A DNA stretch of 64,000 bases, from the NCBI RefSeq assembly GCF_041886205.1, contig NZ_CP169029.1; one strand, 5' to 3'. This DNA is from Escherichia coli. Its GTDB lineage: Bacteria; Pseudomonadota; Gammaproteobacteria; Enterobacterales; Enterobacteriaceae. Numbering within the stretch: the first letter of the stretch is position 1; every line of letters starts with the position of its first letter. The notes under the pieces were generated by a model. It was not told the origin of the DNA. It saw only the letters and a program-made list of their open reading frames with translations, and did no database searches. Position numbers and translations under genes: made by a program. This document shows positions 43,076-46,477 of the stretch, in pieces.

Positions 43076-43393
43076 ATGAAAAAGATAGCTGCTATATCAT
43101 TAATTAGTATTTTTATTATGTCTGGTTGTGCTGTGCATAATGATGAGACAAGTATCGGTAAATTTGGTCTTGCATATAAAAGTAATATTCAGCGTAAACT
43201 CGATAACCAATACTACACCGAAGCCGAAGCTTCTTTAGCCAGGGGTAGAATATCTGGTGCAGAAAATATAGTAAAAAATGATGCAACTCATTTCTGTGTT
43301 ACTCAGGGCAAAAAAATGCAAATAGTTGAGCTGAAGACAGAAGGTGTAGGATTACATGGTGTCGCTCGTCTGACATTCAAATGTGGAGAGTGA
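43076..43393 (+). CDS. yegR: Small predicted lipoprotein YegR
   Basis: MKKIAAISLISIFIMSGCAV (lipobox); AT-rich gene; about 105 aa. Confidence 0.8.
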   Translation: MKKIAAISLISIFIMSGCAVHNDETSIGKFGLAYKSNIQRKLDNQYYTEAEASLARGRISGAENIVKNDATHFCVTQGKKMQIVELKTEGVGLHGVARLTFKCGE

Positions 43394-43552
43394 GAATATT
43401 TTTTGGTAAGCGTCAAATATGCGCGTTCTGGCTGTGCGTAGCCGGAACCTGTGGGAGCACGATGCCGATAAGTGAAAGGCATCGTGCTATGAAGGAGGAT
43501 TCTATCGATGTGGTCAATGGAAGACGGTTACCAGAGATAGGGCTTATGCATA

Positions 43553-43639
43553 AAAAAATAAGCCCGTGTAAGGGAGATTACACAGGCTAAGGAGGTGGTT
43601 CCTGGTACAGCTAGCATTTTATGGGTTATGTTTTTCAGC
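43553..43639 (-). ncRNA. cyaR: CyaR (RyeE) Hfq-dependent sRNA
   Basis: Minus-strand sequence GCTGAAAAACATAACCCATAAAATGCTAGCTGTACCAGGAACCACCTCCTTAGCCTGTGTAATCTCCCTTACACGGGCTTATTTTTT, recognised from memory, including the terminator hairpin. Confidence 0.85.
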
Positions 43640-43723
43640 GAAACGGATGATAACCTTAATAAATGCAGCTGTATGTGATCGGTTTCTAAGAATTTTCCAT
43701 CCGGGAAAAATAATCGAAATTAA

Positions 43724-45085
43724 TCACTTACCGTGTGGGTTACGCGTGGTTTCCCCGGAGAAATTACGCATCAGCAGAGCGTAATTGAGCTCAAGATCCT
43801 GCGGGACCGGGAGCCACACAGTATAACCATCGCCTGGTGCGACCGGCATCGCTTCACCTTTGGCGTTTTCCATGTGCTCAAGGGTAAAGTTAATGTTGCC
43901 TTGCGGCGTCATCAGCTCAAGGCTGTCGCCAACGGAGAATTTATTTTTCACCGCTACCGCCGCGAGGTCCCCCTTGCGCTCACCGGTAAACTCACCAACA
44001 AACTGCTGGCGGTCAGAAACTGAATAACCGTATTCGTAGTTCTGATAATCGTCGTGAGTATGACGACGCAGGAAACCTTCGGTATAGCCACGATGCGCCA
44101 GACCTTCCAGAGTTTCCAGCAGGCTGGTATCGAACGGTTTGCCCGCAGCGGCGTCATCGATAGCTTTACGGTAAACCTGTGCGGTGCGTGCGCAATAGTA
44201 GAAAGATTTAGTACGGCCTTCGATTTTCAGCGAATGCACGCCCATTTTGGTCAGGCGTTCTACATGGGCGATGGCGCGCAGATCTTTCGAGTTCATGATG
44301 TAAGTGCCGTGCTCATCTTCAAACGCGGTCATATACTCGCCCGGACGCTGGGCTTCTTCGATCATAAACACTTTGTCGGTTGGCGCGCCGATACCCAGCG
44401 TCGGCTCAACATTTTGCACCGGAATCGGCTCGTACTTGTGTACGATGTTGCCAACGTCATCTTCTTTCCCTTCCTGGACGTTGTACTCCCAGCGGCAGGC
44501 GTTGGTGCAGGTACCCTGGTTCGGATCGCGCTTGTTGATATAGCCAGAGAGCAGGCAGCGACCGGAGTAGGCCATGCACAGTGCGCCGTGAACGAAGATC
44601 TCGATCTCCATATCCGGCACCTGATTGCGGATCTCTTCAATCTCTTCCAGCGACAGCTCGCGAGAGAGGATCACGCGGGTCAGGCCCATTTGCTGCCAGA
44701 ATTTCACCGTCGCCCAGTTTACGGCGTTAGCCTGCACCGAGAGGTGGATCGGCATTTCAGGGAAGTGCTCACGCACCAGCATAATCAGCCCTGGATCGGA
44801 CATAATCAGCGCATCCGGCCCCATTTCCACCACCGGTTTCAGGTCACGGATAAAGGTTTTCAGCTTGGCGTTGTGCGGTGCAATGTTGACCACGACATAA
44901 AACTTTTTCCCCAGCGCGTGGGCTTCATTGATGCCGAGCTGAAGATTTTCGTGGTTGAATTCGTTGTTGCGCACACGCAGGGAGTAACGCGGCTGGCCCG
45001 CATAAACAGCATCTGCGCCATAAGCGAAAGCGTAACGCATATTTTTCAGCGTTCCCGCCGGGGAAAGGAGTTCCGGTTTAAACAT
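43724..45085 (-). CDS. yegQ: Peptidase U32-family protein (tRNA hydroxylation factor TrhP/YegQ)
   Basis: 453-aa ORF MFKPELLSPAGTLKNMRYAFAYGADAVYAGQPRYSLR. Confidence 0.9.
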   Translation of the reverse strand: MFKPELLSPAGTLKNMRYAFAYGADAVYAGQPRYSLRVRNNEFNHENLQLGINEAHALGKKFYVVVNIAPHNAKLKTFIRDLKPVVEMGPDALIMSDPGLIMLVREHFPEMPIHLSVQANAVNWATVKFWQQMGLTRVILSRELSLEEIEEIRNQVPDMEIEIFVHGALCMAYSGRCLLSGYINKRDPNQGTCTNACRWEYNVQEGKEDDVGNIVHKYEPIPVQNVEPTLGIGAPTDKVFMIEEAQRPGEYMTAFEDEHGTYIMNSKDLRAIAHVERLTKMGVHSLKIEGRTKSFYYCARTAQVYRKAIDDAAAGKPFDTSLLETLEGLAHRGYTEGFLRRHTHDDYQNYEYGYSVSDRQQFVGEFTGERKGDLAAVAVKNKFSVGDSLELMTPQGNINFTLEHMENAKGEAMPVAPGDGYTVWLPVPQDLELNYALLMRNFSGETTRNPHGK

Positions 45086-45231
45086 AATTCTCTCGTTCTG
45101 ATGACAGGTCAGATCCGCTTCACCTGATGAAGCGGTTAGGGGAGTGCCCCCACTTTAAGGGCGGGCATTGTAGCGCTGTGGGGGGATCTGGTAAAGCGCC
45201 GGACGCCAACAACCCACGCCCGGCATCGTAA

Positions 45232-45564
45232 TTACGTATTGTCTTTCACCGTCTGGCTTGTGCCATTGGCTTTAACGGAGGCAATTCCGGTTTCACGAGA
45301 TTGCGCGGTGGCGTACATCTGGCTGGAGCCGATAATTTGATGATTAGCGGCTTTCAGATTGAAATAGAATTTGCCGTTACTTGCCGTTTTTTTCTCATAG
45401 CGTTCTTCTTGCGGGCTGTTGCTACGCACCGACGCGATGCCCTTTTCCGCAGAGGCTTTTGAGGTATAAAGCTCGCTGGTGAGGATAGTCTCACCATTGC
45501 CCGCTTTTAGCACAAACCGGAACTGATTATCACTGCTCTTACTGAGTTCAAACCAACCAGCCAT
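45232..45564 (-). CDS. yegP: YegP, tandem DUF1508 (UPF0339) protein
   Basis: Start MAGWFELSKSSDNQFRFVLKAGNGE; two internal repeats of about 50 aa. Confidence 0.85.
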   Translation of the reverse strand: MAGWFELSKSSDNQFRFVLKAGNGETILTSELYTSKASAEKGIASVRSNSPQEERYEKKTASNGKFYFNLKAANHQIIGSSQMYATAQSRETGIASVKANGTSQTVKDNT

Positions 45565-45754
45565 AATGACTCCTTGATTGAAATTGTGTATCGAAAACAG
45601 CATCTAAAGGTGCTGTTTACCGATTAAAGTATGAGCGATTTTCTGATGCCTGCCAGGGCGGAGAGATAATGTCAGTTTGCTGACCATGCGTGGGATAATG
45701 TTGCCGGATCTGGTCTGAACGCCATCTCCGGCTAACAAAATAATGTCGCTAAAA

Positions 45755-46477
45755 CTAAACGATGCGGCAGGCGTCGGCTTCCCAGCGGTAACCGACGCCA
45801 TAAACGGCGCGGATAAATGACTGTTCGGCGTCGAGAGATTCCAGCTTGCGGCGCAGGTTTTTAATGTGGCTGTCGATGGTGCGGTCGGTTACTACGCGGT
45901 AGTCGTCATAAAGATGATTGAGCAATTGCTCGCGGGAGAACACTTTTCCTGGTTCGTGAGAGAGCGTTTTCAGCAGACGAAATTCCGCAGGCGTCAGGTC
46001 AAGCATTTTACCGCGCCATGAAGCCTGAAAACGACCTTCGTCGATAATCAACGGGCTTTCAGCATCCTGTTGCTGCAACTCGCGCTGCGGTTTGCAACGG
46101 CGCAAAATGGTTTTGACGCGCGCTACCACTTCCCGTGGGCTGTACGGCTTACAGATATAATCATCTGCGCCAATCTCCAGCCCCAGCAGGCGATCGATCT
46201 CTTCGATTTTTGCCGTCACCATCACGATCGGAATGTCAGAAAAACGACGAATTTCCCGGCACAGCGTCAGGCCATCGGTGCCAGGGAGCATCAGATCTAA
46301 CAGGATCAGATCCGGTGGTGTCTGGCGCACATACGGCAGTACCTGATCGCCGTGGCTGATAAGCGTCGGCGCATAGCTCGCAGCACGCAGATAATCAATG
46401 AGCAACTGCCCCAGCTTCGGTTCATCTTCCACGATCAAAATACGCGGTGTGTTTTCGTCGATTGGTAACTCGGTCAT
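45755..46477 (-). CDS. baeR: Response regulator BaeR (OmpR family)
   Basis: 240 aa with a receiver domain (LIVEDEPKL...DLMLPGTDG) and winged-helix C-terminus. Confidence 0.95.

Follow-up and report, generated by a model that had tools for sequence, protein, structure and literature searches.

The gene yegP, which lies on the minus strand directly after baeR in the 64,000-nucleotide (nt) stretch of Escherichia coli DNA analysed here (the window; NCBI RefSeq assembly GCF_041886205.1, contig NZ_CP169029.1), encodes a small protein made of two DUF1508 modules, and the published data place its expression under RpoS (sigma-S) and not under BaeR. The name of the gene, its family, its structure, its internal duplication and its sigma-S control are already on record; co-regulation with the neighboring baeSR-mdtABCD genes, the sole new idea of a preliminary description of the window, is contradicted by published data. 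We regard the identity, architecture and regulation of yegP as set out below, leaving its ligand aside, as very probably correct.

On our own and published data, yegP has its own promoter, with a TATACT-like -10 box, and is reported to be strongly RpoS-dependent in stationary phase; its product of 110 residues, losing only Met1 and staying in the cytoplasm, carries two beta-beta-beta-alpha modules derived from an ancient tandem duplication. The tandem form has been described as a pseudo-symmetric intramolecular dimer, the single-chain counterpart of one-domain homodimers, and YegP may serve as a binding module, perhaps for RNA/tRNA or single-stranded DNA under stress. The question is of some consequence since YegP is strongly RpoS-dependent, can readily be detected as the intact protein in top-down mass spectrometry, and is encoded in nearly all complete E. 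coli genomes searched, and since the DUF1508 module keeps recurring in stress- and phage-related fusions.

Identity and Conservation of yegP

The open reading frame (ORF) comprises 110 codons in an interval that includes the TAA stop (ORF list and translation; Table 1), and its product is identical to K-12 YegP (UniProt P76402, b2080; PDB 2K8E) at 109 of 110 residues, the sole change being Ala37 for Thr37. The K-12 protein shares the two-DUF1508 build and its gene the locus between baeR and yegQ, and RefSeq E. coli genomes annotate the product as “YegP family protein”; the name yegP given in the preliminary description is thus borne out by sequence identity, locus and annotation, and the strand, which had not been stated there, is established here as minus. 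Three observations support initiation at the ATG at 45564, namely an AAGGAG motif 5 nt upstream, the first residue shared among orthologs, and the intact mass of the protein: the published value of 11,885.99 Da (PMC11705214) matches that calculated for K-12 YegP minus Met1, 11,885.93 Da. The ribosome-binding site, ATCAAGGAG, is invariant across six enterobacterial loci in an alignment of the baeR-yegP spacer. Because the intact mass is that of the protein minus Met1, YegP is not cut by signal peptidase and is therefore cytoplasmic; no signal peptide was found in it.

When complete E. coli genomes were searched, 5423 of 5426 matched the 901-bp region around yegP, and a fragment of 61 nt from within the gene was present in 5393. 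The ratio of nonsynonymous to synonymous substitution rates (dN/dS) was 0.04-0.07 in comparisons with E. albertii, a second Escherichia locus (L003) and Kluyvera. In E. coli, yegP belongs to the core genes, keeps a fixed locus and is subject to strong purifying selection. Separately, the 901-bp region of strain 81 is broken up by a copy of IS1.

Internal Duplication and Fold

Local alignment of the two halves of YegP (residues 1-55 against 56-110; BLOSUM62, gap costs 11/1) gave a score of 91, with 19 identities over 49 positions (5-53 against 56-104). When 5000 shuffles were used as the null, scores averaged 23.4 (standard deviation 4.6, maximum 51), so that the observed value corresponds to z = 14.7 and was reached by none of the shuffled pairs. 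Pfam likewise finds two stretches of DUF1508 (PF07411) in the protein (E = 1.7e-45; 153.1 bits against a cut-off of 22). The preliminary description had called YegP an internally duplicated DUF1508 protein and had offered formal alignment as the way in which this could fail; the repeat is significant on such an alignment, and the two peptides which had been singled out, residues 15-50 and 66-101, are identical at 17 of 36 positions without a gap. Structure prediction, which had also been suggested as a check, agrees: an AlphaFold model of YegP (27 orthologs; mean predicted local distance difference test score 91.8) resolves each half into strand-strand-strand-helix, and matches the nuclear magnetic resonance structure 2K8E with a template modeling (TM) score of 0.95 and a root-mean-square deviation of 1.1 Å.

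Both repeats contain the motif F-x-L-K-A-x-N-x3-I-[LG]-x-S-x2-Y-x8-G-I-x-S-V-x2-N, and L28 and G79 form an asymmetric pair between the repeats that is invariant among orthologs. Across orthologs, mean identity is 54% between first repeats and 53% between second repeats, and 41% between the two repeats inside one protein. On these comparisons the tandem duplication is judged to be ancient, because each repeat is closer to its own counterpart in other species than to its partner.

Tandem DUF1508 proteins have been described as symmetric pseudo-dimers and single-domain ones as homodimers (bioRxiv 2024.11.21.623966). Solved relatives exist for both arrangements. Shewanella oneidensis SO_3888 (PDB 2K49) is a YegP ortholog with 65% identity, and the single-domain UPF0339 proteins HVO_2922 (6Q2Z), NMB1088 (3BID) and Atu0232 (2K7I) have one domain per chain and hence pair between molecules. 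Against the NCBIfam model for HVO_2922, YegP reaches 56 bits, short of the cut-off of 90 for that model.

Expression of yegP and Its Relation to BaeR

On the minus strand the genes run mdtD-baeS-baeR, then yegP after a gap of 190 nt, then yegQ after a gap of 146 nt, which confirms the placement of yegP just downstream of baeR in the preliminary description. The operon itself has been given as mdtABCD-baeSR (PMC7657598). With yegP on the same strand and so close behind, it might be supposed that yegP is the last gene of this operon, or is read through from it, and is hence BaeR-responsive; the order baeS-baeR-yegP-yegQ is moreover kept in Escherichia, Citrobacter, Kluyvera and one metagenome-assembled genome (MAG). 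Published RNA sequencing (RNA-seq) under 5% ethanol, an inducing condition, speaks against this supposition. In the baeR knockout, relative to wild type, the log2 changes were -4.0 for mdtA, -3.8 for mdtB, -3.6 for mdtC, -3.35 for mdtD, -4.6 for baeS and -9.4 for baeR (PMC7657598), drops that correspond to 10- to 700-fold, whereas yegP (b2080) is absent from the differential list, where the next entry after baeR is b2146 (PMC7657598 Data Set S3). BaeR chromatin immunoprecipitation with exonuclease digestion (ChIP-exo) gave no peak assigned to yegP in any supplementary file of the same study, and the published BaeR regulon consists of eight genes and ends at baeR (PMC7657598). The expression analysis under BaeR-inducing conditions that had been suggested for the co-regulation idea is therefore already available, and the published data show yegP to be without BaeR dependence, for one inducer. 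A presumed BaeR-box consensus, TCTNCANAA, has no match in the baeR-yegP spacer, which is a weak test; the same pattern has two matches in the window, fewer than expected by chance and none near yegP.

Expression of yegP is tied instead to RpoS. The gene is within the 100 most RpoS-dependent stationary-phase genes of strain EDL933, with a ratio of wild type to rpoS mutant of 185 (PMC2907692), and it is a hub of a network up-regulated under multiple stresses, together with dps, osmY, sra and elaB. Genomic SELEX (systematic evolution of ligands by exponential enrichment) puts a promoter, CTGGCA-17-CATACT, between baeR and yegP (PMC3946193). In the six-locus alignment its CATACT box is invariant, and the remaining spacer has diverged with substitutions and indels throughout. 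A consensus scanner missed this promoter, which is a weak match to the sigma-70 hexamers. Sigma-S is reported to favor -10 boxes of the TATACT type, with C at -8; CATACT followed by TTTAA is consistent with this type, but the box has C, not T, at -12, and the site was isolated with RpoD holoenzyme.

Neither a scanner nor RNAfold revealed a canonical intrinsic terminator between baeR and yegP in E. coli, where the spacer has just a stem of 5 bp (45684-45671) and a hairpin with a long loop, and because of this some read-through from baeR into yegP may occur. In one MAG locus (L009) a terminator-like hairpin of 10 bp stands 3' of baeR, before the yegP promoter, which argues against a shared transcript there. 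The adjacency of the two genes is also sparse. Among 80 species with a yegP ortholog (63-94% identity), baeS-baeR was found upstream of yegP in five, namely E. albertii, the second Escherichia locus, Citrobacter, Kluyvera and one MAG, and in none of the Erwinia, Rosenbergiella, Pseudomonas, Acinetobacter, Stenotrophomonas, Shewanella and betaproteobacterial loci surveyed; it is thus absent in 75 of the 80. The Shewanella xiamenensis locus (L074), for example, has no baeSR within 4 kb, unlike E. coli. In being an immediate same-strand neighbor in Escherichia, Citrobacter and Kluyvera, yegP resembles a member of the mdtABCD-baeSR unit, but it differs in its separate conserved promoter, in its RpoS- and not BaeR-dependent expression, and in an adjacency that is mostly missing. 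Taken together with the knockout data, these differences contradict co-regulation with baeSR-mdtABCD as put forward in the preliminary description, and membership of yegP in a BaeR-responsive operon is scarcely credible.

Candidate Ligands and Partners of YegP

No functional assignment for YegP was found in the literature consulted, and a 2026 paper still terms the protein uncharacterised. Small, aliphatic or aromatic side chains make up its conserved positions, and a Pfam scan matched no enzyme family; a binding module therefore fits better than an enzyme, and the most suitable view of DUF1508 is that of a binding module of general use. Of the ligands that we weighed, nucleic acid comes first: stand-alone cytoplasmic YegP could possibly bind RNA/tRNA or single-stranded DNA (ssDNA) in stressed or non-growing cells, a reading that we put forward tentatively. 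Binding to a protein, or a kinase-linked role, ranks second, and the other options rank lower.

Several observations are consistent with nucleic-acid binding. YegP has an isoelectric point (pI) of 9.4, which it owes to its second repeat, with a pI of 9.7. At locus L084 (6001-7968) a 323-residue protein joins an N-terminal YegP module (54% identity) to a C-terminal HEPN_RiboL-PSP domain, a predicted RNase, and a gene for Dus, tRNA-dihydrouridine synthase, lies 7 nt downstream. At locus L087 (3655-5687) a 228-residue protein combines an XRE-type helix-turn-helix (HTH_3) domain with tandem DUF1508, its YegP module sharing 60% identity with the E. coli protein; upstream, and overlapping the gene for this fusion by 4 nt, is a gene for a HipA_C kinase of 449 residues, and yicC and a PIN/Phd pair adjoin the locus. 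This arrangement resembles a toxin-antitoxin or regulatory pair of the HipA type in which the YegP module would sit on the HTH partner. In addition, residues 9-56 of YegP align with positions 358-405 in NCBIfam NF008923, the equivalog model for tryptophan-tRNA ligase, which has 431 positions (E = 2.9e-6); this match implies a putative family of tryptophan-tRNA ligases with a C-terminal DUF1508-like extension and which we take as a lead only. Tandem DUF1508 has been proposed to be a PC4/Whirly-like sensor domain in Menshen NsnA, the two copies forming an intrinsic dimer of similar topology to the PC4, Whirly and PUR folds that bind single-stranded nucleic acids (PMC12065111); those folds and DUF1508 are both made from repeated units of beta-sheet and helix. 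Homologs of yegP also follow capK-capS, a pair activated by ssDNA, in 57 cases.

A number of points weigh against nucleic acid as the ligand. The first repeat is acidic to neutral (pI 6.2), structural similarity between YegP and solved members of the PC4/Whirly-like superfamily was not detected, the tryptophan-tRNA ligase link is a profile match only, and the HEPN and HTH fusions are single examples each. Many DUF1508 relatives are, furthermore, lipoproteins with four domains or giant arrays in which as many as ten domains follow one another. Metagenomic proteins P0121-P0268 include long arrays of DUF1508 pairs, such as one of 1476 residues with 10 domains, and four-domain proteins of ~260 residues with lipoprotein signal peptides; given these signal peptides, the module is therefore also used outside the cytoplasm.

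YegP may alternatively be a protein-binding adaptor or a regulatory target, acting for instance in stress circuits of Ser/Thr kinases as a substrate, a decoy or a sensor, which we consider doubtful, though less so than any of the options that follow. Thr37 of YegP is a reported phosphosite (PMC8055822). Unlike K-12 YegP, the window protein has Ala37, with which this site is lost, and the Ala allele is common: an exact 61-nt match around codon 37 with the Ala codon occurs in 1140 of 5393 E. coli genomes (about one fifth), and Ala37 is also found in E. albertii and in the second Escherichia locus. Because these two relatives have Ala, Thr37 looks derived, and because Ala37 is this common, phosphorylation at this residue cannot be the core function of YegP. 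Across the family, moreover, no helix position is less conserved than position 37, no interaction partner of YegP is known, and in the 80 genomes surveyed stand-alone yegP has no partner gene conserved across genera, its neighbors being genus-specific.

A partnership with YegQ, the tRNA ho5U34 modification protein, for example with YegP as a tRNA-presenting factor, is improbable. The two genes are adjacent in Enterobacteriaceae, and the Dus gene beside the YegP-HEPN fusion and the tryptophan-tRNA ligase profile give YegP further links of a tRNA flavor, but 74 of the 80 species lack the adjacency. A Burkholderiaceae MAG (L023) does have yegQ ~0.5 kb upstream of yegP, in reversed order; by our own rough estimate (expectation ~0.15), one independent occurrence of this kind is at about chance level. 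Expression also separates the two genes, which changed in opposite directions in a zraR knockout in lysogeny broth (yegP -6.65, yegQ +1.65; PMC7657598). Upstream of yegQ, a promoter-like site recurs with the same hexamers and spacing in Kluyvera (L006) and in the enterobacterial MAG (L009), and because of this recurrence yegQ probably has its own promoter.

DUF1508 is found after capK-capS as well as in Menshen NsnA and the ubiquitin-like Bub proteins, and temperate phages of Streptococcus and Staphylococcus, like mycobacteriophages, also carry DUF1508 proteins, which raises the further alternative that YegP takes part in anti-phage defence, whether as a component of a system or as its effector. 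We find this very improbable. YegP has no match in the PADLOC library, for the Bub operons themselves no protection against phage has been demonstrated, and E. coli yegP, as a core gene with a fixed locus and strong purifying selection, is not part of a variable island. PHROG 1422 does match YegP over its full length. Of the full-length matches in phage records, we inspected that of “Pseudomonas phage Y10” (OQ572411.1 32986-39279, flagged UNVERIFIED), leaving out two 254-kb records of “Acinetobacter phage MD-2021a”. On either side of the yegP homolog in the Y10 record are ORFs resembling threonine dehydratase and ribose-5-phosphate isomerase, so that the record looks like one that holds host DNA, and the PHROG match may be owed to such records. 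A phage origin of yegP was rejected, the inspected match lying among host-like genes; only the one-domain DUF1508 proteins of Gram-positive phages and mycobacteriophages look genuinely phage-borne.

Returning to nucleic acid as the ligand, a broader version of that reading would make stand-alone YegP the housekeeping form of a mobile sensor or effector module for a damage or infection signal (ssDNA, or uncharged or cleaved tRNA), which elsewhere would be wired to kinases (capK-capS, HipA-like), HEPN RNases, ubiquitin-like conjugation and Menshen defence. We rate this broader version as unlikely, if less so than either a YegQ partnership or a defence role. If it were true, E. coli would carry an RpoS-controlled sensor of, or protectant against, nucleic-acid damage that nobody has characterised. 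The fusions to a HEPN RNase and to an HTH domain beside a HipA-like kinase, and the profile of tryptophan-tRNA ligase, point to simple binding experiments with which to approach the ligand.

Flanking Elements and Other Observations

Table 1. Positions of yegP, its parts and its flanking features in the window.
Feature	Position	Strand	Details and basis
yegQ (tRNA 5-hydroxyuridine modification protein)	43724..45085	-	downstream neighbor; ORF, annotation
yegQ promoter-like site	45195-45167	-	TTTACC-17-TACAAT; promoter scan
Weak terminator-like element	45198..45224	-	GC-rich hairpin then CGCTTTACC; 8 nt after yegP stop; RNAfold
yegP coding sequence	45232..45564	-	ORF/translation, 2K8E identity, RefSeq annotation, dN/dS
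DUF1508 repeat 2	45253..45399	-	residues 56-104; strands 56-60, 66-71, 77-80; helix 87-100; Pfam, self-alignment, model
DUF1508 repeat 1	45406..45552	-	residues 5-53; strands 4-9, 15-20, 26-29; helix 36-49; Pfam, self-alignment, model
Codon 37	45454..45456	-	GCC = Ala (Thr in K-12); comparison with 2K8E
Shine-Dalgarno	45570..45575	-	AAGGAG, 5 nt before ATG; read from sequence
Leader hairpin	45595..45618	-	AAACAGCA-N8-TGCTGTTT, 8-bp; near predicted mRNA 5' end; RNAfold
yegP promoter	45628..45656	-	-35 CTGGCA 45656-45651, 17-nt spacer, -10 CATACT 45633-45628
baeR	45755..46477	-	upstream neighbor, last gene of mdtABCD-baeSR; ORF, RefSeq annotation

The leader hairpin sits ~10 nt 3' of the yegP -10 box and may stabilise the 5' end of the yegP mRNA; in the six-locus alignment E. 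albertii has it, the second Escherichia locus has lost it by deletion, and the other genera are without it. The hairpin that follows the yegP stop was not reported by the terminator scanner, its T-run being too short.

Among the genus-specific neighbors of yegP are a small Cys-rich protein, zinc-ribbon-like by eye, in Acinetobacter, and a methyltransferase-looking gene in Pseudomonas. Nine Pseudomonas loci (L039 4477-5496 and eight others) have a convergent gene for a protein of ~339 residues downstream of yegP, which in L039 is 147 bp away.

On the far side of yegQ, the small RNA CyaR/RyeE is encoded between yegR and yegQ at window positions 43556-43641 on the minus strand (Rfam RF00112, 100.7 bits, E = 4.8e-20). 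In strain 720632 (L001 1-7452), P2-like phage tail genes and ogrK adjoin yegQ; in the window, yegR directly adjoins the cyaR-yegQ region (43076-43700), as it does in strain 214-4.
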